Positions 12,696 through 32,000 are shown, counted from the stretch's first letter. The stretch: DNA of 32,000 nt from an uncultured bacterium (GCA_964551815.1 CAZKEL010000015.1:12097-44096); one strand, 5' to 3'. Notes: a model not told the origin generated them from the sequence alone. Made by a program: numbers and translations.

Positions 12696-13568
12696 ATGCA
12701 ATTTTCACGAAATGTGTTCACCATTCTGCTAACTGCTATTTTTCTGATTTCATGCGGAGGAAAGAAAAGCGAAGTGGAAGCTACCCCCGATACCACAGAA
12801 GAAACCATTACCATGGGTAACCACAATACTTATCCCGTTGAACAGACTGCAGTAGAAAGAAATGTGCAGGAAATTATTGAGGGGCTGAATATGGATATTA
12901 AAAAGCTCCGCGCAGAATTGGACTATCAACATGAAAATTTGAGTAAACTGGAAGCCCAATCCCAGATATGGGCAAATCCATTCGCCATTTACAACAAAGA
13001 AATTGTGTTAGATAATGGTAGTTCAATCTTTGGGAAAATTGTTTACCAAGATCAGGATGTAATGAAAGTAGAAACCCTCATCGGTCAGCTCATAATTGAC
13101 AGAAACACGATCATCAGGGTGGTAAATCAGGTAAGTGCTTATGGTAATTTTGAGAAAAACAATACAGATGCTGCTCTGTCAGCAGCCGATCCGGAAGACC
13201 CCTCTGGAATAAACCTGATTCAGAAACGCACAAAATCACTTTCTGCAAATCTGGTACTGGTAGGGGATATCTCCGAAGAAAAGGATGCTTCCGGTAATAC
13301 CATATTGACTGGTGAAGTAAAAAATGTGGGAAACAAACGGGCAGATTTTGCCAAAATTATATTCACTTTCCGTTTAAATTGGCAGGGTGACACAAAAACT
13401 CTCACTGCATTTATAAACGGAGTAACCAATACTTTCGATACGGGAATATCATCTGATAACAGCATTCTCCCTCATGCGGTAGGAAATTTTGAGTTGATGA
13501 TTCCCCGATCTTTTGGCACCTTTATCGGCTATAGTTATGACATTGACTGGAGTCAATATGAGGGCTGA
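12696..13568 (+). CDS. Predicted lipoprotein with a coiled-coil segment and a beta-rich C-terminal domain (function unknown)
   Basis: Signal peptide plus lipobox (TAIFLISC|GG). A heptad-like segment NMDIKKLRAELDYQHENLSKLEAQ is present. It is the first gene of a tightly spaced co-directional array. Confidence 0.6.
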   Translation: MQFSRNVFTILLTAIFLISCGGKKSEVEATPDTTEETITMGNHNTYPVEQTAVERNVQEIIEGLNMDIKKLRAELDYQHENLSKLEAQSQIWANPFAIYNKEIVLDNGSSIFGKIVYQDQDVMKVETLIGQLIIDRNTIIRVVNQVSAYGNFEKNNTDAALSAADPEDPSGINLIQKRTKSLSANLVLVGDISEEKDASGNTILTGEVKNVGNKRADFAKIIFTFRLNWQGDTKTLTAFINGVTNTFDTGISSDNSILPHAVGNFELMIPRSFGTFIGYSYDIDWSQYEG

Positions 13569-14187
13569 TGGCAGCTTCAGGCTGGCTTTAATTATCTGCC
13601 TTTTCGGAATGATCTATGCTGAAAAGATAACCTTGTGGGATTTTGGTGTCATCATAAAAGAGGAACAGTCTCAAATACCAGCCACCAATGTGAATGCCCA
13701 GGCAGCGCCGGAGATAAAGGCACTCATCTCAGACCCTTTTATAGCACCGAAAAAATCGTCTGAGGTTCAGTTTCATCAGCCAGTTGAAAAAGTATCCCCA
13801 ATTAGAAGGGTAACCGGTGAAAACTTTCGGGAGGTGGAAAAATTTATTCAAAGGCATACACTTCAAAAAAATTTTAATCATATTATTCAATCTCTTGAAG
13901 ATAGTGATTTGACGGAATTAACGCTTTCAAACCGTGCAGAAATTCAATTTTGGCTGGCAACTTCATTTATTGAGACAGGACAATTTCAAAAAGCTTTACC
14001 CTATGCACTTTGGGCAGGCTCAAACAGAGGGTCTGACAGAGATTTATTCCTTACGGCTAAAATTTATGAAAAAACCGGCGAAACAGCAAAAGCACTGTAC
14101 CAATACCAGCAGCTCATGTCTCTCTACCCTGACAGCGACTACTACCATTCAGCAAAAATTAAATCCAGAATAATCGCCCGCAGCTAA
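13558..14187 (+). CDS. Secreted TPR-like protein (YbgF/BamD-style C-terminal repeats)
   Basis: I prefer the ATG at 13558 (GGAG 5 nt upstream) over 13513. It has a hydrophobic signal-like N-terminus (FRLALIICLFGMIYA) and a C-terminal TPR-like sequence (QFQKALPYALWA...AKALYQYQQLMSLYPDSDYYHSAKIK). It overlaps the previous gene by 11 nt. Confidence 0.5.
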   Translation: MRADGSFRLALIICLFGMIYAEKITLWDFGVIIKEEQSQIPATNVNAQAAPEIKALISDPFIAPKKSSEVQFHQPVEKVSPIRRVTGENFREVEKFIQRHTLQKNFNHIIQSLEDSDLTELTLSNRAEIQFWLATSFIETGQFQKALPYALWAGSNRGSDRDLFLTAKIYEKTGETAKALYQYQQLMSLYPDSDYYHSAKIKSRIIARS

Positions 14188-14190
14188 AAA

Positions 14191-15531
14191 ATGACCAAAC
14201 CCGGAATTTTATTTCTACTTGTCTTGGTTATTGGATGGGAGCAGGCTGAGGCAAATTCCAGAATTTCTTACTCCCGCCCGGGAAATATGATACGTATTCC
14301 CAGCGTTGATCCTTCCATGAATAATAAATTGTTGGAGATCAATGTGTCATCTGAATACCTGTCATCCTCACAAAACAATTCAGGCTTTGCGGTGAATGCC
14401 ATGTCTCCTAATGGGTATTTATATGGTATTTCTATGGTAAACCCCGTCAATCCTGTCAATTCGGTTGAACTGGGTCTTCATGTGCAGCGCACCCTGTTAG
14501 AGTATGGGAATGTGAATCTGGATGTGGGTATCCATGATTTACTCTTTCGTTCGGGCAGCGACTCCACCGACGGGTTGGATACAAGAGGTATTTCCCTATT
14601 TGGAGTGCTCTCCAGCCAGAAGAGGTTTTCAGATTTTGCCATTGCCACCCATTTAGGTTTTGGATCGGGTAAAATTAATGAAGACTCCCATTTATTTGAG
14701 ACAAATCCAAGTCAAAATCTGGGGGTCTTTCTTGGGTTTAAGTTTACGACTCCCATTTTGAAAAAAAACGGTGGGTTAAGTTTTTTAACAGAATTTGACG
14801 GTACTGGCTTAAATCTTGGTCTTAACATTCCCATTTTTAATTCCTATCATATTAATTTTGGTATTACTCATTTTGAAAATTTTGGTAATTTTGCCACTGA
14901 AGACCGAGCCGGAACAGAATGGGAAGCCTTAAAAGGAAACGCTCCTTCTGTTACCTTTGGGGTGAGCATGAACATACCCCGGGCGGTATCTGCAGAAGAT
15001 GAAACCGAAGAGGAAACACGCGTAGGAGACGGCATTTATGCTGTTACGGACTCGTCAATTTTATACTATGAACCCATCTGTGTTGAAGTGGTTGAAACAT
15101 TGAGAGACTCCATCAGGGTCAATCAAAATACTATTGAAAATTTAAAGGCGCATAACAATATGCTTCTCCATTCTGAAGCCATACTGGTAGATTCTACACA
15201 AAAAAGTTTGTTTCGTGAACAGACCAGTCAATTGAATCAGAATAAGGCAATGCGTCATTTATCCAGATCACTGCGGTTTTTCTATTCTGAGCAGTACAGA
15301 GATGCCCTCTCTGAAGTGAATCTGGCAATAGAACTGAATCCCCAATTAGCTATTGCTTACGGGCGCAGGGGATCAATTTATTATAAATTGGGAGATGACC
15401 GCAGGGCTACCTTAAACTGGAATGTAGCTTTGCAGTTAGATCCGGAATTTACAGAAATTTACGATATGCTGAAGGCAGCAGAAGAGAACCGTCTTCAGCC
15501 TGTTGAAATAGGTAAGAAAACAGGAGATTAA
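14191..15531 (+). CDS. Secreted protein: N-terminal Gly/aromatic beta-rich domain (possible outer-membrane barrel) + coiled coil + C-terminal TPR
   Basis: Signal peptide MTKPGILFLLVLVIGWEQAEA. About 270 aa show alternating beta-like segments (GLHVQRTL, ISLFGVLS, LGVFLGFKF, HINFGITHF, SVTFGVSMNI). Canonical TPRs follow (AIELNPQLAIAYGRRGSIYYKLGDDRRATLNWNVALQLDPEF). Confidence 0.55.
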   Translation: MTKPGILFLLVLVIGWEQAEANSRISYSRPGNMIRIPSVDPSMNNKLLEINVSSEYLSSSQNNSGFAVNAMSPNGYLYGISMVNPVNPVNSVELGLHVQRTLLEYGNVNLDVGIHDLLFRSGSDSTDGLDTRGISLFGVLSSQKRFSDFAIATHLGFGSGKINEDSHLFETNPSQNLGVFLGFKFTTPILKKNGGLSFLTEFDGTGLNLGLNIPIFNSYHINFGITHFENFGNFATEDRAGTEWEALKGNAPSVTFGVSMNIPRAVSAEDETEEETRVGDGIYAVTDSSILYYEPICVEVVETLRDSIRVNQNTIENLKAHNNMLLHSEAILVDSTQKSLFREQTSQLNQNKAMRHLSRSLRFFYSEQYRDALSEVNLAIELNPQLAIAYGRRGSIYYKLGDDRRATLNWNVALQLDPEFTEIYDMLKAAEENRLQPVEIGKKTGD

Positions 15532-15534
15532 TGT

Positions 15535-16347
15535 ATGAATCTGGGTACCGTAATAGGATTAGTATTAGGTCTTGTGCTTATGGGAGTTGCGTCTGTTTTA
15601 GCATCAATGGGTGCCAATGTCCCTATGAGTGCGTTAGTAGATCCCGTCAGTTTTTTAATTGTGGTAGGGGGATCCATCGCTGCAACTGCCATCGCTTTTC
15701 CTTTAGAGGATGTGCTGGCGGCCTTCGGCGGGTTTGGAAAAGTATTCGGAACTCAAGGCTTTACCTTTAAAGATGTAGTTATGGATTATGTGAATTTAGC
15801 AGAACAGGCAAGAAAAGGTGAACTGGCAAAAGCTATTGAGGAAACTCCTGAACATATGCCCTTTCGATTAGGCTCTATTAAAGACGGGCTACAAATGATT
15901 GTGGATGGATATTCGCGGGATGACATTCGTGAAATTATGGAAAATAAAGAGGAATACCGATCTGTAAGGGAAATAAAAAAAGCAAACGCTATGGCAAAAA
16001 TGGGTGAATATGCCCCGGCTTTTGGAATGATCGGAACGCTTATCGGGCTGGTGTTCATGCTGGGATCCATGGCAAACCCCCCGGAACCTGGAGTTGACCC
16101 TGCTGCGAAACTGGGTGGTTCCATGGCGGTGGCTCTTATAACAACACTCTATGGTGCTTTCTTTGCCTTTTTCTTCTTTGGTCCTTTTTCAGATCAGCTT
16201 AAATACGAAAACGAAGATAAAAAAATTGAGTCTGCCATTCATGTGGAAGGCATTCTCTTGCTCCATGCAAAAACGCACCCCATTATGGTGAGAGATAAAT
16301 TAAATGCCTTTTTAGCACGGAAAGACCGCTTGAAAGATGAAGGATAA
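15535..16347 (+). CDS. motA: MotA/PomA-like stator channel protein (MotA/TolQ/ExbB family)
   Basis: Four-TM topology with a cytoplasmic loop of about 100 aa between TM2 and TM3. TM3 motif YAPAFGMIGTLIGLVF and TM4 TTLYGAFFAFFFFGPF carry both conserved prolines. AGGAG lies upstream of the ATG. Confidence 0.85.
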   Translation: MNLGTVIGLVLGLVLMGVASVLASMGANVPMSALVDPVSFLIVVGGSIAATAIAFPLEDVLAAFGGFGKVFGTQGFTFKDVVMDYVNLAEQARKGELAKAIEETPEHMPFRLGSIKDGLQMIVDGYSRDDIREIMENKEEYRSVREIKKANAMAKMGEYAPAFGMIGTLIGLVFMLGSMANPPEPGVDPAAKLGGSMAVALITTLYGAFFAFFFFGPFSDQLKYENEDKKIESAIHVEGILLLHAKTHPIMVRDKLNAFLARKDRLKDEG

Positions 16348-16352
16348 GCTGA

Positions 16353-17336
16353 TTGGCTAAGCAAAAATGCCCAGATTGTCCTCCTGAAGGGCTTCCCGGA
16401 TATATGGGAACCATGGCAGACATGTTTACCCTCCTGTTTGCTTTCTTCGTTCTCATGTTCTCTCTGGCTACCATGGACCCTGCTAAATTGGATGCCCTTG
16501 GTGGTGATAAAGCAGGAGCTGCTGATGCCAAAGAAGCAAAAGAAGCCGTTGAAGAAATAAAGAAAGAAATGCAGGAACTAAAAGAAAACGGAATTACAGA
16601 AATTAACGGTAAACCCATAGAAGAATATGCCGACAGTCTTATAGAACAGAAAATGAAAGAGACAATTCCCCCTCCGAAATTAGCGGAAGTTCGGAAGGAT
16701 GTAGCAGAGATCATTGAAGATATGGAATTGGACACCACAGCAAATCTCTCCATGAGAGACCAAAGAGGAATAGCATTTGAGTTAAATGGAGATATCTGTT
16801 TTAAACAGCTTTCCGCAGATATGCAGCCGGAACTGATACACTTTTTAGATGCAGCCGCTGACAGCTTTTTGGTGAACCCCAATGATAAACGCCAGGTGAT
16901 TGTTGAAGGTCATACGGATAATTTACCTATACCCAAAAAATTTAAAACCCGTTATCCTACAAACTGGGAGCTTTCCACAGCCCGTGCATCTGCTGTAGTA
17001 AATTATTTGATTGACAGGGGAGTGGATGCCTCCCGTCTGGTTGCTCATGGCTATGCGGAGCGCTGGCCTGCAGATCTTACCTGGTCTGATATGCGGAAAG
17101 GCTATGTTGAAGAACAGAAGGGCTCAAAAAAAATTGATCCCAGAACTGGGCAGGCATCTTTTGAAGGGGATATTGGCAGGTCTGATGTAAAGAAAAAACG
17201 CATCCCTATTCCCACCATGATTGATTCTCTCAATTCTACGGTGGAGTTAAGAAGAAAGAACAGACGAATTAAAATTATTTTTACCTATAATAATTATGTT
17301 GATGGTTCAGACCCATGGGTGCCTCCAAAAAATTAG
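16353..17336 (+). CDS. motB: MotB-like stator protein with an OmpA-type peptidoglycan-binding domain
   Basis: TTG start with GAAGGA 7 nt upstream. The N-terminal CPDCPPEGLPGYMGTMADMFTLLFAFFVLMF carries the conserved channel Asp (D23). OmpA-like blocks are VIVEGHTDNLPI, YPTNWELSTARASAVVNYL and RRKNRRIKIIF. There is a coiled-coil linker, and an extra segment of about 55 aa inside the OmpA-like domain. Confidence 0.85.
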   Translation: MAKQKCPDCPPEGLPGYMGTMADMFTLLFAFFVLMFSLATMDPAKLDALGGDKAGAADAKEAKEAVEEIKKEMQELKENGITEINGKPIEEYADSLIEQKMKETIPPPKLAEVRKDVAEIIEDMELDTTANLSMRDQRGIAFELNGDICFKQLSADMQPELIHFLDAAADSFLVNPNDKRQVIVEGHTDNLPIPKKFKTRYPTNWELSTARASAVVNYLIDRGVDASRLVAHGYAERWPADLTWSDMRKGYVEEQKGSKKIDPRTGQASFEGDIGRSDVKKKRIPIPTMIDSLNSTVELRRKNRRIKIIFTYNNYVDGSDPWVPPKN

Positions 17337-17403
17337 GAGCATTTCATTTTTAAGATGAGGATGAATCCATTAAATTTACAATGCCGTAAACAGGAGCAAA
17401 ATC

Positions 17404-18729
17404 ATGACCAATAAAACAGGTCGGTATTTCTTACTAATTGCTATTTTCACCCTGCTTTGGAACCAGCAGACCAACTACCTTGCACAGAAAATAGCCATTG
17501 AAAATTCATATAGGGATAAGGTGAATTCTGCTGTTTCCCGTATTTTGGGACAAGAAAAATTCCTCGTAATCGTGAATGTGGAATTCTCAACCATGGGAGG
17601 TACACTGAAAAAAGGAAGTGCTTCCTCCGAGGGGAAGGGAAATACCTATACACCTGTCCCCGGTCTGCCCACCCTGCCGTCTTCTTCAGGAAAATCTTCC
17701 ACATCATCAACAGGCAGTAAAACTCTCTCAGCCAATGATTATAGTATTGGCAGGGTAGAGGTTACCGTCGGTATTGATGAAACTATCGTTACCGGCTCCG
17801 TCAAACAGGAAATAAAACAAGTCGTTGCCAGAGTCATTCCTGAAACAGCGGACTGTGAGGACTGTATCAAAATTGAAGCCATGGAGTTTCAAAAGAGTAA
17901 AAAAGATCAGAAAATTGATGAATTAGTACAAAAAATTGAAAATCTTGAAACGGCAAAAAGACGGGCAGATATTGCTGCTGATTCTATCCGCTTAAATGAA
18001 TTAGAAAGACAATTAACCGAAGCAAATTCTATTAAACAGACTTGGGAGGCTATGGCAAAAGCCCGGGAATTGCAGCAAATGAAGCAGGACTCAATCCGCT
18101 TTGAGAATCTGGTGAAATCAGAGCGAGACCGAAAAATACAGGACTCCATCAAATTCGTAAATACAGAAGCACGGTTGGAGCGGGTTATCGAAAGTAAAAT
18201 AAAATCGGACTCAACCATTATCAGCGAAACCATGGGCATTTTGAAACAGACAACGGGTACAGGGGAAGAGAAAGAAGAGTCCATTTTAGGGATGGATATT
18301 GGGGGAGGCAGTTCTGACATAATGAGCTCTGTGATTTTTATTCTCTTAATAGTCGCCCTCATGATTGTTACCTTTTTAGCGGCAAATAATAAAAAACCTA
18401 AAACAGTTTATTTAAAACCTAAAGGGAAAGACAAAGAGCCAAAGAAGAAAGAAAAGAAAGAATCAAAGGGGAAAGACAAAAAAACCAAGAACGGCTCAGA
18501 TGAACCACCAGTCAATGAAACTCCTGCACCAGAGCCAACATCTGAACCGACACCTCCACCCCCAAGACCTGATGAAGATGCACTGCGTTCTGAAATAAAA
18601 TCACTGCGGCAAACGGCTGTATCTCTTACCGTAGGTGAAAAAGAGGGTGCATCCGCTCTTATTAAAGAGTGGTTGTCAGATAATCCAAATAAAGCAGACG
18701 AGGGTGGTGAAGAAGGTGGAGAGGAATAA
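17404..18729 (+). CDS. Truncated FliF-like (M-ring-like) two-TM protein with a long periplasmic coiled coil and a FliG-docking-like C-terminus
   Basis: TM1 is at aa 8-20. An RBM3-like pattern follows: YRDKVNSAVSRILGQEKFLVIVNVEF, then a Ser/Gly/Pro-rich insert, then IGRVEVTVGIDE...VKQEIKQVVARVIPE...CIKIEAMEF. Compare the FliF pattern VxVxAxLDF / RLSVAVVVN / GDxxxVxxxxF. A coiled coil spans aa ~165-265 and TM2 spans aa ~306-326. Then come a Lys-rich and a Pro-rich linker, then ASALIKEWLSDN, which resembles the Salmonella FliF C-terminus VVALVIRQWMSND (from memory). AGGAG lies 8 nt upstream. Confidence 0.55.
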   Translation: MTNKTGRYFLLIAIFTLLWNQQTNYLAQKIAIENSYRDKVNSAVSRILGQEKFLVIVNVEFSTMGGTLKKGSASSEGKGNTYTPVPGLPTLPSSSGKSSTSSTGSKTLSANDYSIGRVEVTVGIDETIVTGSVKQEIKQVVARVIPETADCEDCIKIEAMEFQKSKKDQKIDELVQKIENLETAKRRADIAADSIRLNELERQLTEANSIKQTWEAMAKARELQQMKQDSIRFENLVKSERDRKIQDSIKFVNTEARLERVIESKIKSDSTIISETMGILKQTTGTGEEKEESILGMDIGGGSSDIMSSVIFILLIVALMIVTFLAANNKKPKTVYLKPKGKDKEPKKKEKKESKGKDKKTKNGSDEPPVNETPAPEPTSEPTPPPPRPDEDALRSEIKSLRQTAVSLTVGEKEGASALIKEWLSDNPNKADEGGEEGGEE

Positions 18730-18735
18730 GCCATT

Positions 18736-19683
18736 ATGAAGACACTTGAAGACCTGACAGGTTACGATAAAGCAGCTATTATTTTTGACATTCTGGGAGA
18801 TTCTCTCGCTTTGAATATGTTTAAGGATATTCCTGAACCTGAGTTTTATGAGCTGCGAAACCATGCGAAAAACTTGCGGAATGATGTACCTACTTCTGTT
18901 AAAAAAGAAGTGTTGGAGGATTATTATTTCAAAATGCTTTCAGGGGAGAAGTATAAAGAAGAAACGACCATTGAGAATATGTTCGACTTTCTGGAATCTT
19001 TGGATGATGAACAGTTGTATGCCCTACTATCTCCGGAAAAACCCCGCGTCATAGCCCTTGCCCTTGAACAGTTAGACAACGAAAAGCGCATGACTTTTCT
19101 CTCAAAGGTGAATACAGAAAAGCAGAATAAAATAGTTATTGCAACAGGGGAGTTGAGTGATATTCCGCTGGAAGCTATTATTTTCACTGCCAAGGAGTTA
19201 AAGAAGAAAACGGCCTTTCTGCCTAAACCGGTTCAGTTTTCAAGAGGCGGCGGCAGGTCTGTTTCCGATATGCTGGGGAAAATGCCGGAAGATGAAGCAA
19301 TGCAGTATTTAGATCAAATGAAGATTAACAATCCCGATTTACTTGCTGAAGTGAAAAAATACTTCCTGCTCTTTGATGACATCATGAACATGCCGGAAGA
19401 TCTGGCAGCCACTTTTTGGGGCGACCCGGATATTGACCTTGAAATCATGGCAAAATCTTTAAAGGAACTTGAAACCGAAACAGTAGAAAAAATTCAAGGG
19501 TATCTGCCAGGGAAAAAGCAAGCCATGTTCACCCCTCATGAAGGAGCGCTTTCAAAGCGGGAAATTGATGAAGCCAAAGGGGCTATAAAAAATATCCTGC
19601 AAGGCAAGATAGATTCAGGAGATATAAATATTGAAGATGTTTTGGCTGCCCCTGAAATTGAAGAAGAAGGAGCCGAAGAATAA
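18736..19683 (+). CDS. FliG-like rotor/switch protein homologue
   Basis: Collinear with FliG over its full length. N-terminal LTGYDKAAIIFDILGDSLALNMFKDI matches LTGxxKAAILLxxLG. Middle PEKPRVIALALEQLDNEKRMTFLSKV matches EHPQTIALILSYL. FLLFDDIMNM matches MFVFEDL. C-terminal LSKREIDEAKGAIKNILQGKIDSGDINI matches VRLxDVEEAQQKIxxxxRxLEEEGEIxI. Its length (315 aa) is typical of FliG. Confidence 0.8.
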   Translation: MKTLEDLTGYDKAAIIFDILGDSLALNMFKDIPEPEFYELRNHAKNLRNDVPTSVKKEVLEDYYFKMLSGEKYKEETTIENMFDFLESLDDEQLYALLSPEKPRVIALALEQLDNEKRMTFLSKVNTEKQNKIVIATGELSDIPLEAIIFTAKELKKKTAFLPKPVQFSRGGGRSVSDMLGKMPEDEAMQYLDQMKINNPDLLAEVKKYFLLFDDIMNMPEDLAATFWGDPDIDLEIMAKSLKELETETVEKIQGYLPGKKQAMFTPHEGALSKREIDEAKGAIKNILQGKIDSGDINIEDVLAAPEIEEEGAEE

Positions 19684-26821: not shown

Positions 26822-27559
26822 TTAAAAACTTGCTTTTACAAATTCCCGGTTTAAGCGGCCAATATTTTCAACAGAGATTTCTTTAGGGCACTCCACTTCG
26901 CAGGCAGAAGTATTGCTGCAGTTTCCAAAACCTTCCATGTCCATCTGGCCTACCATATTTTTTACTCTGGACTTTCTCTCAACCTGACCTTGAGGCAATA
27001 GTGCATATTGGGATACCTTTGCCCCTACGAAGAGCATGGCAGAGGAATTTTTACAAGCAGCAACACAGGCTCCACAGCCAATGCAGGCAGCAGCATCAAA
27101 AGCTAAATCAGCATCATCCTTTAGAATGGGTATTGCATTAGCATCCGGTACACCTCCCGTACTAACGGATACATAACCGCCGGCTTCCATTACTCGGTCG
27201 AAGCTGCTACGATCTACCACCAAATCTCTGATAACCGGAAAGGCTTTTGCCTGCCAGGGCTCAATGATTACAGTATCGCCATCCTTAAAACTACGCATAT
27301 GCAGCTGACAAGTGGTGACGCCTTTCAATGGACCGTGAGCCCGCCCGTTTATCATGATTCCGCAGGTTCCGCAGATGCCTTCACGGCAGTCATGGTCAAA
27401 AGAAATGGGATCTTTTCCATCTTTGACAAGCTGATTATTCAGCATATCTAACATTTCAAAGAAGGACATATCCTCAGACACATTGTCAACAGGGTAAGTT
27501 ACAAAATTTCCTTTTGCATTGCGGTCTTGCTGGCGCCAGGCCTGAACAATAATTTTCAT
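26822..27559 (-). CDS. sdhB: Succinate dehydrogenase/fumarate reductase iron-sulfur subunit
   Basis: Cluster motifs are [2Fe-2S] [10 protein letters not shown], [4Fe-4S] [11 protein letters not shown] and [3Fe-4S] [12 protein letters not shown]. The start abuts the sdhA stop. Confidence 0.92.
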
Positions 27560-29472
27560 TATTTATAACTCCTTGTGGTCAGGCTTACTTCTTCAAAATT
27601 CAGGTCTTCTTTATGCAGTTGAGGAACCCCGCCATCTCCTTTATACTCCCAGGTGGCAGCGTAGGCAAAGTCCTCATCATTTCGTTTGGCTTCGTTTTCT
27701 TCGGTTTGGAATTCTTCCCTAAAATGTCCACCGCAGGATTCTTCACGGTGCAGGGCATCCCGAGCCATGAGTTCTCCTAATTCCAGAAAATCTGCCAGGC
27801 GGCTGGCTTTTTCCAATTCAGGATTATATTCGTTATTACCACCTGGAATAAAAACATCCTTCCAAAAGTCCTCCTTCAGTTTGGGGATGAGTTCCAATGC
27901 TTTTTCCAATCCGTCCTTATTGCGTGCCATACCCACATATTCCCACATGACCTTCCCTAACTCTTTATGAATATCATCAACGGTTTTCCTGCCTTTAATG
28001 GCCAACATTCTATCGAGATTTTCTTTCACAGCTTCTTCAGCATGTTTGAATGTCTCATCAGTATTATTTACTGTTTTTAGTCCACCCTGTGCCAAGTAAT
28101 CACCAATTGTGTAGGGGATGATGAAATAGCCGTCAGCCAAGCCCTGCATGAGAGCACTGGCACCCAATCGGTTGGCTCCGTGATCTGAAAAATTGGCTTC
28201 CCCCAATACATGCAGGCCCGGAACAGTGGACATGAGATTATAGTCCACCCAGAGACCGCCCATAGTATAATGCACCGCCGGATAAATTTTCATAGGCGTT
28301 TCGTAAGGATTCTCTCCCGTGATTTGCTGGTACATGTCAAAGAGATTGCCATATTTTTCTGACACCCAGTCCTTGCCATTGCGCTTGATGACATCTTCAA
28401 AATCTAAATAGACGGCTAATTTTGTAGCACCAACCCCATGCCCTTTATCACACATTTCCTTTGCTCTGCGTGAGGCCACATCCCGAGGGACCAGATTTCC
28501 GAAGGATGGGTAGAGCCGTTCCAGGTAATAGTCCCTTTCTTCATCGGGGATGTTATTGGGGGTGCGGTCATCGCCGGCTTTCTTAGGCACCCAGACTCTG
28601 CCGTCGTTCCGCAGACTTTCACTCATCAAAGTGAGTTTAGACTGATGATCGCTGGAAACAGGAATGCAGGTAGGGTGAATCTGCGTAAAACAGGGATTGG
28701 CAAAACAGGCACCTTGCTTATGTGCTCTCCAAGATGCCGTTACATTAGAGGCCATGGCATTGGTTGAAAGGAAGAACACATTACCATACCCGCCGGTAGC
28801 TAAAATTACGGCGTGGGCAGAATGAGAGGTGATTTCTCCTGTCTCTAAATTTCTGGTTACGATGCCACGGGCTTTGCCATCTACTTTAACAATGTCCAGC
28901 ATATCATGGCGGGGGTAAAATTGTACTTTGCCTGTATTCATCTGACGAACCAGAGCAGAATAGACACCTAATAAGAGCTGCTGCCCGGTTTGTCCGCGTG
29001 CGTAGAATGTGCGGGAAACCTGAGCCCCGCCAAAAGAGCGGTTATCCAGCAAACCGCCGTACTCCCGTGCAAATGGCACGCCTTGTGCCACGCATTGATC
29101 AATGATATGGTTGCTCACTTCTGCCAGGCGGTACACATTGGCTTCCCTGGCACGGTAATCGCCCCCTTTCACTGTATCATAAAAAAGGCGGTAAATACTG
29201 TCCCCGTCGTTGGGGTAATTTTTCGCAGCGTTGATGCCGCCCTGGGCTGCAATACTATGGGCACGGCGGGGAGATTCATGATAGGAGAAGGCTTTTACAT
29301 TGTAGCCAAGTTCAGCTAAGGTGGCAGCAGCAGATCCCCCGGCTAATCCTGTCCCCACCACAATAATATCATACTTGCGTTTATTGGCAGGATTCACCAG
29401 CTTCATGGAAAATTTATGATTGTTCCACTTTTGTGAAACCGTTCCTTCAGGAATTTTTGAATTCAGGATCAT
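27559..29472 (-). CDS. sdhA: Succinate dehydrogenase/fumarate reductase flavoprotein subunit
   Basis: FAD fold [15 protein letters not shown]. The covalent-FAD His context is [14 protein letters not shown]. The motifs HPT, HYTMGGL and [10 protein letters not shown] are also present. Confidence 0.95.
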
Positions 29473-29481
29473 AATATTAAG

Positions 29482-30144
29482 CTATTTAATAAAACCAAAA
29501 TATAGAGGAATGGAAATAAACCCCACAGGGATGATAAGCCAAAACAGGACTGCAATCTTCTCAACCATGCTTTTGTAACGGGAATCAGCAAGACCAAAAG
29601 TCTGAAATGCAGATTGAAATCCATGGCGGAGGTGCAGAGCTAAGAGGATGAGAGCAATGATATAAAAAATTGCCACCAAGGGGTTGCTATATCCAATTTC
29701 GCTGTTTACGACTACTTGGTAGAAATCTGCATCTACACCGTGCATTTTCTGAAAACTCCACCAAAAAGTCTGCAAATGAAATACAAGAAAGATAAAAACA
29801 ATGCTGCCGGAAACTGCCATGGTTCGACTGTGAAAAGTGGCTGTGGAATTCCCGGGAGCTATTTTATATGAGCGGGGTTTTGCCTTTTTGTTTTCAAGAG
29901 TTACCCTGATTCCAGAAATGATATGCCCCAGAAAAATAAGTGTGAGGATGACTTCTGCAATTCTTACCAATGGTTTCATAGCTGTGAGGGAAAGGACATA
30001 ATTATTGAACATTTCAGCACCACCAAAAAGGAGGAGGTTTCCTGCCAAGTGGGCAACAAGAAAAAACCCAAGGAGGACACCAGTAGTGGCCATGAGAATT
30101 TTCTTACCAATGGAGGATTGAAAAAAGTGAAGGAGCCAGGTCAT
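29482..30144 (-). CDS. sdhC: Succinate dehydrogenase cytochrome b subunit (b558-type, five TM)
   Basis: The N-terminus FFQSSIGKKILMATTGVLLGFFLVAHLAGNLLLF is typical of the b558 family. Conserved His residues occur in the TM helices. It sits immediately upstream of sdhA. Confidence 0.75.
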   Translation of the reverse strand: MTWLLHFFQSSIGKKILMATTGVLLGFFLVAHLAGNLLLFGGAEMFNNYVLSLTAMKPLVRIAEVILTLIFLGHIISGIRVTLENKKAKPRSYKIAPGNSTATFHSRTMAVSGSIVFIFLVFHLQTFWWSFQKMHGVDADFYQVVVNSEIGYSNPLVAIFYIIALILLALHLRHGFQSAFQTFGLADSRYKSMVEKIAVLFWLIIPVGFISIPLYFGFIK

Positions 30145-30159
30145 TTTACTAATAGTAGT

Positions 30160-30525
30160 TTATTTTGAAATCATTAATCCTATGGCAATGCCTGCAACAC
30201 CAATAATCAGGCTGGAGGAGATATACAGAAACGTCATTTTTATATCACCGGTTTTTAATAATTGGTAGGTTTCCAATCCGAAGGCTGAAAAAGTAGTGAA
30301 GCCTCCCAAAATTCCAATGGCTGCAAACTCTTTTATTGGCAGAGAAGAATTGTTTTCCAAGCCGGAGTTAACCCAGATACCTAAACACAGGCAGCCAATG
30401 AAATTAACCATGAAGGTACCCAGTGGAAATCCAAAGCGGGCAAACTGTGACATCCAGGCAGAGGTGACATAGCGCAGGGAAGCACCGATAAATCCGCCAG
30501 CCCCAACCATGAGGACTTCTTTCAT
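30160..30525 (-). CDS. crcB: Fluoride ion channel CrcB/FluC
   Basis: 121 aa and four TMs. Motifs are GAGGFIGASLRY, GTFMVNFIGC and GILGGFTTFSAF. Confidence 0.88.
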   Translation of the reverse strand: MKEVLMVGAGGFIGASLRYVTSAWMSQFARFGFPLGTFMVNFIGCLCLGIWVNSGLENNSSLPIKEFAAIGILGGFTTFSAFGLETYQLLKTGDIKMTFLYISSSLIIGVAGIAIGLMISK

Positions 30526-30534
30526 TTTATTTAT

Positions 30535-30897
30535 TTAGAAAGGGATATCATCATCGGAAAACGCAGCCGGCGCAGCTGCAGGTGTACCTGCCGCTTCGGC
30601 TGAAGGCGGCGGCGGAGGAGGTGGATAATTTTCATCCATACCCATAGGCGGTGCCATGATTTCCTGACCGTATTCCTGAATGGCCATCTGCGAAATTTTA
30701 TCCCGCAGTATTCGGTCTGCTAACACGGTATCATAATATTCCCCGTCCTGACCTTTCTGGCTGGGCATGGAGACAAATAATCCGTTGATGCCCTCTACCA
30801 ATCGAAAACCTTTGATGATGAATCCTTCTTCTGTGGTTAAGTCAAAAAAGGCACGGACTTTTCCCCAGCTGCCTTTATTCATGCGTTCAATTTTCAC
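30535..30897 (-). CDS. SpoVG-family nucleic-acid-binding protein fused to an SSB-like disordered linker and acidic tip (…DDDIPF)
   Basis: GTG start with AAAGGGG upstream. GKVRAFFDLTTEEGFIIKGFRLVEGINGLFVSMPSQKGQDGEYYD aligns with B. subtilis SpoVG [45 protein letters not shown]. The C-terminus is PPPPPPPSAEAAGTPAAAPAAFSDDDIPF. Confidence 0.8.
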   Translation of the reverse strand: MKIERMNKGSWGKVRAFFDLTTEEGFIIKGFRLVEGINGLFVSMPSQKGQDGEYYDTVLADRILRDKISQMAIQEYGQEIMAPPMGMDENYPPPPPPPSAEAAGTPAAAPAAFSDDDIPF

Positions 30898-30970
30898 TAA
30901 TAAATCCCCTTTCTGTTAGGGGTGAAATTTAGGAGGAAATTTGGATGTGGGACAAAGGAGGAATTGTTTA

Positions 30971-31259: not shown

Positions 31260-31421
31260 TTATTGTGTGCTCTCCTCAACAATTGCAATCTCTTCTTCTG
31301 TCAGCCCATACAACGCATACACCAACTGGTCTGTTTCGACTTTGCTCAACACAAGTATTTCGGCTTCAAGGACAGTGGCGAAAATACTTATACAGATTTT
31401 GGGTGTATATTGAATTCCCAT
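31260..31421 (-). pseudogene. C-terminal remnant of a restriction-modification/adenine-specific DNA methyltransferase
   Basis: A 53-codon minus-strand ORF ends ...EAEILVLSKVETDQLVYALYGLTEEEIAIVEESTQ*. The LVYxLYGLTEEEIxIVE ending is the stereotyped C-terminus of type IIG / Eco57I-like / PglX-like methyltransferases. Only the last ~35 codons are recognisable, and the 5' part overlaps the higA-like 3' end. Confidence 0.4.
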
Positions 31422-31681
31422 TCTAATTCAAGCGCATTTGTAATTTGTGATAAAAAAGATATTGACGGCATTTTCATTGCCTTTTCAAAACGGGAGATTG
31501 AACTTTGTTTTGTTCCAATTTTTTCTGCTAATTCTTTTTGAGTTATGCCTTGCGCAATTCGAAATGCAACTATTTCTCTAATTAATTTATACACAGGCTC
31601 CAAATCATTATAGGTTCGTTTGAATTCAGCATTTTGTAATAATTTTTCTTTATGCCGTTCAACATTTGTTTTTTTCTTCAT
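31388..31681 (-). CDS. higA: XRE-family HTH antitoxin (HigA-like)
   Basis: The HTH motif is GITQKELAEKIGTKQSSISRFE. It is 97 aa, lies downstream of a Gp49/HigB-like toxin gene and overlaps it by 23 nt. Confidence 0.8.
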   Translation of the reverse strand: MKKKTNVERHKEKLLQNAEFKRTYNDLEPVYKLIREIVAFRIAQGITQKELAEKIGTKQSSISRFEKAMKMPSISFLSQITNALELEWEFNIHPKSV

Positions 31682-32000
31682 AATCTTTTTTCCTTTTCTG
31701 TGCGATTTTAATTTCTTTCTTGGGTGTTTTTCTGGTTTTCTTGGTAAATCCGTTTAATAATACAAACTTTTTCCCGGTAAAAGTAAAATACAGTATTCTC
31801 TCAGATCCCGGTCGCATTTCCCAAACCTTACCTTTAATATGTTTAAGATAAGGCTCTCCCAATTGAATCCCGAATTCTTCAACCAAATCAAACACTCGCA
31901 TAATATTAGCCTGTTTTTCAACCGGCAAACTGTCAATATATGCTTCAACAGGCTTAATACCGCGATGATCTTCATAATATTCGATTCTCCATTCACTCAT
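31659..32000 (-). CDS. higB: Type II toxin, RelE/ParE superfamily (HigB / phage Gp49-like)
   Basis: WRIEYYEDHRGIKPVEAYIDSLPVEKQANI...LGEPYLKHIKGKVWEMRPGSERILYFTFTGKKFVLLNGFTKKTRKTPKKEI is the typical Gp49-like toxin pattern. The ATG uses the last three bases of the window, so an upstream start cannot be excluded. Confidence 0.8.
   Translation of the reverse strand: MSEWRIEYYEDHRGIKPVEAYIDSLPVEKQANIMRVFDLVEEFGIQLGEPYLKHIKGKVWEMRPGSERILYFTFTGKKFVLLNGFTKKTRKTPKKEIKIAQKRKKDYEEKNKC

Follow-up and report, generated by a model that had tools for sequence, protein, structure and literature searches.

In bacteria, the C-terminal tip of SSB, the protein that binds single-stranded DNA, is considered the mark that leads genome-maintenance enzymes to SSB-coated DNA, and is also an antibiotic target and a constraint on moving recombineering systems between species. 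Among phages, an acidic C-terminal tail ending in Phe couples the single-stranded DNA (ssDNA)-binding proteins T7 gp2.5 and T4 gp32 to replication and recombination partners, and in the Thermoproteales, the non-OB protein ThermoDBP displaced the canonical SSB lineage-wide, a precedent for another fold in an SSB-type role. The hexapeptide DDDIPF of Escherichia coli SSB mediates the protein interactions of SSB (PMC5872125), and the acidic tip, nine residues in length, serves to recruit at least 17 partners (PMC7145534, PMC10018359); T7 SSB is mentioned in PMC12339929. SpoVG is another nucleic-acid binder: the Listeria protein binds ssDNA non-specifically (Kd 1.2 uM), binds RNA and does not significantly bind double-stranded DNA (PMC4959528); the Staphylococcus aureus protein is a 55-60 kDa multimer in solution, and canonical SpoVG crystals contain dimers and hexamers (PMC3688583). 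Here we describe a gene in a stretch of 32,000 nucleotides from an uncultured bacterium (GCA_964551815.1, CAZKEL010000015.1:12097-44096; hereafter, the window) that encodes a SpoVG-fold protein with the linker and tip of an SSB and that we call the SpoVG-tip gene. Both kinds of protein are already known; their natural combination is new.

The open reading frame (ORF) of 363 nt encodes MKIERMNKGSWGKVRAFFDLTTEEGFIIKGFRLVEGINGLFVSMPSQKGQDGEYYDTVLADRILRDKISQMAIQEYGQEIM-APPMGMDENYPPPPPPPSAEAAGTPAAAPAA-FSDDDIPF, that is, a SpoVG-fold domain followed by a disordered linker and an SSB-type tip (Table 1). The domain matches the Pfam family SpoVG (PF04026) over residues 2-77 with 50.1 bits (cut-off 29.6), and a profile of 78 family members matches the three SpoVG entries of the PDB (2i9z, 2i9x and 2ia9) at E values of 4e-11 to 1e-8. 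In an AlphaFold2 model built on the family alignment, residues 1-81 have a pLDDT of about 72-81; Foldseek aligns the model with the SpoVG structures 2ia9, 2i9z and 2i9x (Bacillus subtilis, Staphylococcus epidermidis) over 79 residues (TM 0.72-0.80, rmsd 2.0 A) and returns no fold other than SpoVG below E = 0.7. A profile match to the phage protein Abc2 (anti-RecBCD) in the PDB search (E = 0.58) was judged to be due to chance. The protein shares its fold, the Pfam match and the conserved GLFV-x-x-PS core with canonical SpoVG (B. subtilis, S. aureus, Listeria monocytogenes, Borrelia burgdorferi; PDB 2ia9, 2i9z), but is only 29-36% identical to it, lacks the first ~6 N-terminal positions of the profile and carries Q-K instead of the canonical K-R doublet, and the canonical proteins end shortly after the helix, without linker or tip. 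Because it scores 50.5 bits against the NCBIfam equivalog NF009749 (septation regulator SpoVG; cut-off 108), it is a divergent member of the SpoVG superfamily and no equivalog of the Firmicutes protein.

All residues beyond 81 have a pLDDT of 44-60 (44-52 in the linker), and the linker is disordered and poorly conserved, as in SSB. The family linkers comprise 17-38 residues, rich in Pro (17%), Ser (15%), Ala (11.5%) and Glu (10.6%), with Lys, Arg and Leu near 0. The end of the protein reads ...PPPPPPPSAEAAGTPAAAPAAFSDDDIPF, with the stop codon immediately following, and thus has the D-D-D-[IL]-P-F terminus of the SSB acidic tip. Among the best 120 of 1,366 database homologues (59-99% identity), all 120 end in [DE][DE]D[IV]PF. 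By column, the entropy stays close to 0 across the domain, rises to 1-3 bits, with many indels, over residues 82-110 and falls back to near 0 at F113 and D115-F120. This combination of a conserved core, a freely varying disordered linker and an invariant tip is the conservation signature of SSB. In 36 Fidelibacterota genes, the tip codons vary synonymously (CCT, CCC, CCA or CCG for Pro, ATT, ATC or ATA for Ile, GAT or GAC for Asp) while the amino acids are fixed and the stop codon directly follows the tip in 36/36, which indicates selection on the tip peptide and on its free C-terminus. A chance match is ruled out by this conservation and by the fact that [DE]3[ILVM]PF-stop occurs once across the six frames of the window.

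The resemblance to bacterial SSB (E. coli; PF00436) extends to the entire layout, with a folded core, a variable disordered linker and an identical hexapeptide at the extreme C-terminus. The differences are in the core, which is a SpoVG and not an OB fold and for which ssDNA binding is predicted by analogy, in the linker, which is Pro/Ser/Ala/Glu-rich rather than Gly/Gln/Pro-rich, and in the conserved aromatic residue (Phe or Tyr in 29 of the 36 genes), which precedes the terminal Phe by 7 positions here and by 6 in SSB. Because an OB fold was looked for and not found (no SSB match in Pfam or NCBIfam), the protein falls outside the SSB family despite the like layout; in a tblastn comparison with E. 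coli SSB, the last 6 residues were the sole part matched. T7 gp2.5 and T4 gp32 differ in that their cores are of the OB type and their tails evolved toward partners encoded by the phage, whereas here the bacterial SSB-Ct consensus is attached to a SpoVG fold. ThermoDBP is archaeal, has yet another fold and no SSB-Ct tip, and displacement of canonical SSB in Fidelibacterota would be conjectural. The engineered PriB-SSBc chimera, in which the SSB C-terminal domain is joined to another DNA-binding core (PMC8509808), is a laboratory analogue, but is artificial, and PriB itself has an OB fold. The first-pass annotation of the window had read this architecture from the sequence, with SpoVG replacing the OB fold, the first ~80 residues assigned to SpoVG and the exact SSB tip at the end, and the fold, linker and tip data agree with it on each point. 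It had also described the ending as a Pro/Ala/Gly-rich linker of ~35 residues; the disordered, SSB-type character holds, but the linker is ~31 residues long and Pro/Ala-rich, with little Gly.

A tip of this kind could in principle serve a system other than that of SSB, as a C-terminal degradation tag for ClpXP or as a mimic of the FtsZ C-terminal peptide (D-I-P-x-F-L), which would fit the old label 'septation protein'. The FtsZ tail shares the letters D-I-P...F, and B. subtilis SpoVG affects asymmetric septation. For the degradation tag, a Streptococcus mutans study reports that ClpXP recognizes SsbA and SsbB by their last three residues, LPF, and describes this recognition as strain-dependent and absent in other bacteria (PMC5143411). 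The FtsZ motif, moreover, has a P-x-F spacing and runs past the Phe, whereas here P-F is always followed by the stop, as in SSB, and the phage loci described below place the gene in the context of recombination and replication, not division. We therefore regard this explanation as highly improbable.

The scan of species-representative genomes retrieved 35 full-length homologues, all 35 with the tip. Among these records, 18 are labelled Candidatus Neomarinimicrobiota or Marinimicrobia and 1 FCB group, and the rest are unlabelled metagenome-assembled genomes (MAGs), nearly all with the same gene order; this phylum (Marinimicrobia/SAR406) is Fidelibacterota of the FCB group in current NCBI naming. 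Canonical SpoVG genes found in the same scan (Firmicutes, Limnocylindrales [Chloroflexota], Rubripirellula [Planctomycetota], Symbiobacteriaceae) end shortly after the helix and are tipless. A search with the domain only (residues 1-80), covering one representative per 50%-identity cluster, yielded 1,354 relatives; among the best 150 of these, an ending in acidic residues plus [ILVF]PF is shared by about one-third of the intact proteins with a single domain (85-145 aa, 40-60% identity), and many others are visibly frame-shifted read assemblies. In a crude neighbour-joining tree of ~80 positions, which should not be over-read, the tip-bearing proteins (Fidelibacterota, Ignavibacteria-type, viral and unassigned) form one large group in which viral sequences are intermixed with those of Fidelibacterota, whereas canonical SpoVG and a tipless intermediate group stand apart. 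A sub-clade from Ignavibacteria/Melioribacteraceae consists of SpoVG-like proteins of ~100 aa with a short linker and an xDLPF tip (P0323-P0351); in the one genome inspected, a Melioribacteraceae MAG of 4.0 Mb (GCA_019638015.1, L155:8001-8309), the neighbours are NERD/UvrD-like helicase, AAA and DUF2779 genes, not sdh. The first-pass annotation had proposed to map SpoVG proteins ending in the tip, and their spread covers Fidelibacterota (35/35), Ignavibacteria and uncultured phages; it had also named the possibility that the tail is an assembly or frameshift artefact absent from orthologues, which is ruled out given that no orthologue lacks the tail and that purifying selection acts on it at the codon level. 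Full-text literature searches on SpoVG, SSB and SSB-tip mimicry found no description of a SpoVG-SSB tail fusion, consistent with the view of that annotation that the fusion was undescribed.

In Fidelibacterota, the gene is anchored next to the succinate dehydrogenase genes. A 9-nt gap without any terminator-like site separates it from crcB, and together with the co-oriented crcB and sdhCAB (26822..30525) it probably forms one operon of which it is the first gene. The order SpoVG-tip gene, optional crcB, sdhCAB is retained with the same orientation in 31-32 of the 35 loci (L005-L039), often with gaps of 0-12 nt, and TonB-ExbBD genes come after sdhCAB. Upstream, the genes vary, with pyruvate phosphate dikinase, an oligopeptide ABC transporter or a leucine-rich repeat protein in different loci, and the rest of the window contains housekeeping genes (NAD and pantothenate synthesis, UvrA, CtpA and others). 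Because the sdhCAB synteny is fixed while the upstream genes vary, and because the window is of a housekeeping type, the gene in Fidelibacterota belongs to the core and is inherited vertically; it is no remnant of a prophage. An origin of the window copy from a prophage or another mobile element is likewise ruled out for this phylum by the synteny across 35 genomes and the housekeeping window, even with a toxin-antitoxin-like pair upstream. Given the conserved close spacing, a nucleic-acid-binding protein thus appears to be co-transcribed with succinate dehydrogenase/fumarate reductase.

A scan of IMG/VR detected 29 viral loci with relatives at 38-72% identity, 18 of which carry a C-terminal [ILVM]PF tip, and BFVD contains a viral protein of 109 aa that aligns over its full length (45% identity). 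GenBank phages yielded only distant, tipless SpoVG homologues, for example, in podophages of Clostridium perfringens. Gene order is shared by the viral loci: a gene of 130-226 aa lies upstream of the SpoVG-like gene, after which come a helix-turn-helix (HTH) protein of 55 aa, a ~265-aa protein and, further on, genes for a RusA-like resolvase, a DNA methylase and the large terminase. The ~265-aa protein is a DnaD-like helicase loader/replication initiator (PHROGs phrog_2514, 8e-32). The upstream gene of L055 encodes an Erf-like single-strand annealing protein (SSAP; phrog_155, 1e-41), and the remaining upstream genes belong to phrog_11717 (unknown function; blastp to the Erf-like ones E 2e-7) or to an unlabelled family, 'fam6'. 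Pfam gave no match for most of the phage neighbours, and PHROGs labelled some only. The slot between the annealing protein and the replication initiator is the usual place of ssb in temperate phages, so that the SpoVG-tip gene of phages takes the position where ssb usually sits. [quoted passage not shown] Three N-terminal types of upstream protein share a C-terminal segment of ~55 residues (blastp E 1e-8 to 1e-14), a candidate partner-binding module and perhaps the receptor for the tip.

This gene order (L047-L075: annealing protein, SpoVG-like, HTH, DnaD-like, RusA-like) indicates a role in replication or recombination, not in sporulation. In a marine virome study (ISME J 2021), viral spoVG is listed among the 'sporulation' auxiliary metabolic genes of oxygen-minimum-zone viruses and is reported to be enriched in low-oxygen marine viromes (PMC8940887).

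A second IMG/VR scan used the initiator protein as the query, with all stop-to-stop ORFs analyzed and duplicates removed. Three variants of the module were found. In the first, a tipless Erf-like protein precedes the tipped SpoVG-like protein, the HTH protein and the initiator; in the second, fam6 takes the place of the Erf-like protein; and in the third, an Erf-like protein of 205-212 aa that itself bears a tip is followed by the HTH protein and the initiator. Among the 7 loci with a tip (E[DE][IV]PF) on the annealing protein, 5 have no SpoVG-like gene and 2 have a tipless one of 78 aa. A tipped SpoVG-like gene is accordingly present in 0/7 of these loci compared to 16/28 loci with a tipless upstream protein (Fisher p = 0.009, a value that overstates the support because the phage loci are not phylogenetically independent). 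The complementary distribution of the tip between Erf-like and SpoVG-like proteins is suggestive, and its simplest reading is that the phage module needs one single-strand-handling protein with an SSB-type tip, the SpoVG-like protein being one supplier. A related phage (L123) encodes an ordinary OB-fold SSB ending in SSDDLPF upstream of the initiator. The tips of the Erf-superfamily annealing-type proteins read ...EFEDEVPF, ...EKKDEIPF and ...DNEAIPF; single-strand annealing proteins with an SSB-Ct-like tip are, to our knowledge, undescribed. Several further, unrelated proteins of unknown function (80-341 aa) in these phage modules end in an acidic stretch followed by [ILMF]PF.

These patterns bear on an explanation in which the tail only regulates the protein that carries it, that is, the acidic linker and the tip mimic nucleic acid, fold onto the SpoVG surface and tune RNA or DNA affinity or specificity, with no recruitment of partners; the likeness to SSB-Ct would then reflect a shared solution to self-inhibition. 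SSB, too, has a tip that binds the OB fold of the same protein, and the linker and the tip here each have a net charge of -3. Other small nucleic-acid binders, such as Hfq, are autoregulated by C-terminal tips that are acidic and disordered (PMC5606850, PMC6561178). Charge mimicry, however, does not call for an invariant I/V-P-F-COOH at the exact C-terminus in Fidelibacterota, Ignavibacteria and phages, the domain has no net positive charge, and the shift of the tip between the SpoVG-like and Erf-like proteins of one phage module is left unexplained. Self-regulation as the sole role of the tail is, in our judgment, unlikely.

The occurrence of the tip on several otherwise unrelated proteins of the phage modules, and the carriage of the gene by phages as such, could instead be taken as signs of a decoy. 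The SSB tips would titrate SSB-interacting proteins off SSB-coated DNA, with phages disarming or hijacking host repair and replication factors and the bacterium using the protein as a regulator; an identical tip implies identical pockets. A constitutive decoy encoded by a core gene of the sdhCAB operon throughout a phylum is hard to rationalize, and the strong conservation of the folded domain indicates that its own activity matters, not that of the peptide alone. We consider a decoy function unlikely overall. It is more plausible in phages, where it is compatible with recruitment of the same partners to nucleic acid.

The explanation that we favor, to which we assign about an even chance, is that the gene encodes an SSB-like hub built on a SpoVG instead of an OB fold, which presents SSB-Ct peptides to SSB-interacting proteins. 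We base it on the three-part architecture, the identity of DDDIPF, the phylum-wide retention, the phage context with no OB-fold SSB detected in the inspected stretches, the pattern of one tip per module, the ssDNA binding of SpoVG and the known action of SSAPs through the SSB tail or a cognate SSB. The SpoVG domain would bind single-stranded nucleic acid, probably as an oligomer like canonical SpoVG, which would display several tails as the SSB homo-oligomer does, and the flexible acidic linker would hold F-S-D-D-D-I-P-F-COOH away from the domain. The tip peptide would dock in the SSB-tip pockets of proteins of the RecO, RecQ, RecJ, RecG, PriA, DnaG, Ung, topoisomerase III and RNase HI type, and these genome-maintenance proteins would thereby be brought to the nucleic acid held by SpoVG; without bound nucleic acid, the tip may fold back onto its own binding domain, as in SSB. 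In phages, the protein would act beside the Erf-like annealing protein and the DnaD-like initiator, its tip coupling the module to partners, and in Fidelibacterota, the gene is a fixed chromosomal one. The sequence and structure data establish the architecture and the selection on it, the fold, the disorder of the linker, the taxonomic spread and the genomic contexts, whereas we infer that the Q-K variant binds nucleic acid and with what preference, that the tip docks, on which partners, and that it recruits rather than competes.

Several observations weigh against an SSB-like hub. The canonical basic doublet aligns with Q47-K48, which is invariant in the clade, so that only the second basic residue is retained, whereas K50 and R51 of S. 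aureus SpoVG are both required for DNA binding (PMC3688583); R53-R54 is the Borrelia counterpart of this doublet. The SpoVG-like domain, at a net charge of -1, is not basic overall. The neighbours in Fidelibacterota are sdhCAB and housekeeping genes, with no DNA-metabolism genes. On the phage side, apart from the non-independence of the loci, confidently Erf-like upstream genes are limited to L052 and L055, the rest being tied to them by weaker blastp similarity, and most upstream genes sit in the families of unknown function, phrog_11717 and fam6. That no OB-fold SSB was detected in the phage stretches (phmmer, and tblastn with the E. coli and B. subtilis cores) speaks for a hub, but about 8-12 kb were inspected per contig and such a gene could lie elsewhere on it. 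In the window and the 35 genomic flanks, too, no canonical SSB was found, whole Fidelibacterota genomes not having been searched.

A wider generalization, which we put forward tentatively and hold to be possible but doubtful, is that there exists a second, non-OB-fold class of SSB-type hub. In many marine phages, it would replace ssb as the partner of the annealing protein, and Fidelibacterota/SAR406 and, separately, Ignavibacteria would each retain a fixed copy through which the SSB interactome is tied to another substrate. Since SpoVG binds RNA and ssDNA, this substrate could be RNA, R-loops or transcription-replication conflicts.

As to the expression signals of the gene, the start MKIERM (M-K-I-E/D-R-M) is at the same position in all 35 orthologous loci, with ATG, TTG or GTG as the codon, and the ribosome-binding sites of the orthologues lie at an equal distance (AGGAGG, AAGGA or GAGGA). 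About 61% of the public gene calls for the family (homologues P0001-P0120) begin at the internal Met6, a start-codon mis-call that arises because the true start is often TTG or GTG, and the first beta-strand (MKIER) is therefore absent from many database entries. The promoter-like element upstream (Table 1) corresponds to what we take to be the Bacteroidota -33/-7 consensus and is thus a candidate promoter of the FCB/Bacteroidota type; there is also a sigma-70-like match, TTATCA-16-TATAAT, at 30998-30971. A small hairpin at 30906-30922 (minus), CCCCTAACAGAAAGGGG, was flagged by the terminator scan; it takes in the Shine-Dalgarno sequence and, instead of being a terminator, could mask the ribosome-binding site of the SpoVG-tip gene.

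Table 1 Positions of the SpoVG-tip gene, its parts, signals and neighbours in the window, and of phage genes discussed in the text
Feature	Position	Strand	Basis
Complete coding sequence, 120 aa, GTG start, TAA stop	30535..30897	minus	ORF list, sequence
SpoVG-fold domain, residues 1-81, six beta-strands and helix 62-81	30655..30897	minus	Pfam, PDB profile, AlphaFold2, Foldseek
Disordered low-complexity linker, residues 82-112 (APPMGMDENYPPPPPPPSAEAAGTPAAAPAA)	30562..30654	minus	pLDDT, entropy, composition
SSB-Ct-type acidic tip FSDDDIPF, residues 113-120	30538..30561; TAA stop at 30535-30537	minus	motif scan, homologues
Shine-Dalgarno GAAAGGGG, 8 nt 5' of GTG	30906..30913	minus	read from sequence
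Promoter-like element TTTG, 21 nt, TAAATTTC	30924..30956	minus	sequence; kept in several orthologous loci
crcB	30160-30525	minus	Pfam label
sdhC	29482-30144	minus	Pfam label
sdhA	27559-29472	minus	Pfam label
sdhB	26822-27559	minus	Pfam label
Phage upstream genes with shared ~55-residue segment	L052:2819-3403, L055:1548-2135, L059:5379-6011, L060:1730-2293, L063:5475-6014, L053:5439-6014		blastp
Tipped Erf-like proteins, 205-212 aa	L107:3285-3902, L115:1259-1897, L126:2835-3473, L140:2048-2683, L070:1282-1911, L072:1285-1914; also L120, L130		
Other tipped phage protein, ...EEDLPF	L134:3276-3764		
Other tipped phage protein, ...IEDLPF	L146:1357-1983	minus	
Other tipped phage protein, ...SDNDFPF	L103:5280-6305		
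Other tipped phage protein, ...EENIPF	L047:10095-10337		
Other tipped phage protein, ...DEEMPF	L051:1547-2119		

Elsewhere in the window, a toxin-antitoxin-like pair (31388-32000, minus) lies 5' of the SpoVG-tip gene across a gap of ~490 nt, with a Gp49/HigB-type ORF of 113 aa overlapping an HTH_3/HigA-type ORF of 97 aa; the start of the first ORF falls on position 32000, the edge of the window. A cluster at 12696-19683 (plus) encodes TPR proteins, a MotA/ExbB-type channel, an OmpA/MotB-type protein, an unlabelled protein of 441 aa and a FliG-like protein with weak matches to all three FliG domains, with no further flagellar genes in view. The Rfam and tRNA scans of the window returned no hits.

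That a fold unrelated to SSB bears its peptide, and does so under strong selection, suggests that the SSB interactome is addressable by a second kind of nucleic-acid binder. For SpoVG, the function of which has been disputed since the 1980s, the tip offers a definite point from which the biochemistry of one branch of the family, at least, can be tested. The phage modules with the tip on either the annealing or the SpoVG-like protein amount to a natural experiment, which can show what part the tip plays when phages recombine and help to select SSAP/partner pairs for editing the genomes of bacteria of the FCB group. These loci argue against taking viral 'spoVG' in marine viromes for a sporulation gene, and if a second class of SSB-type hub does exist, viral 'spoVG' in ocean viromes would represent replication and recombination genes and not sporulation auxiliary metabolic genes.

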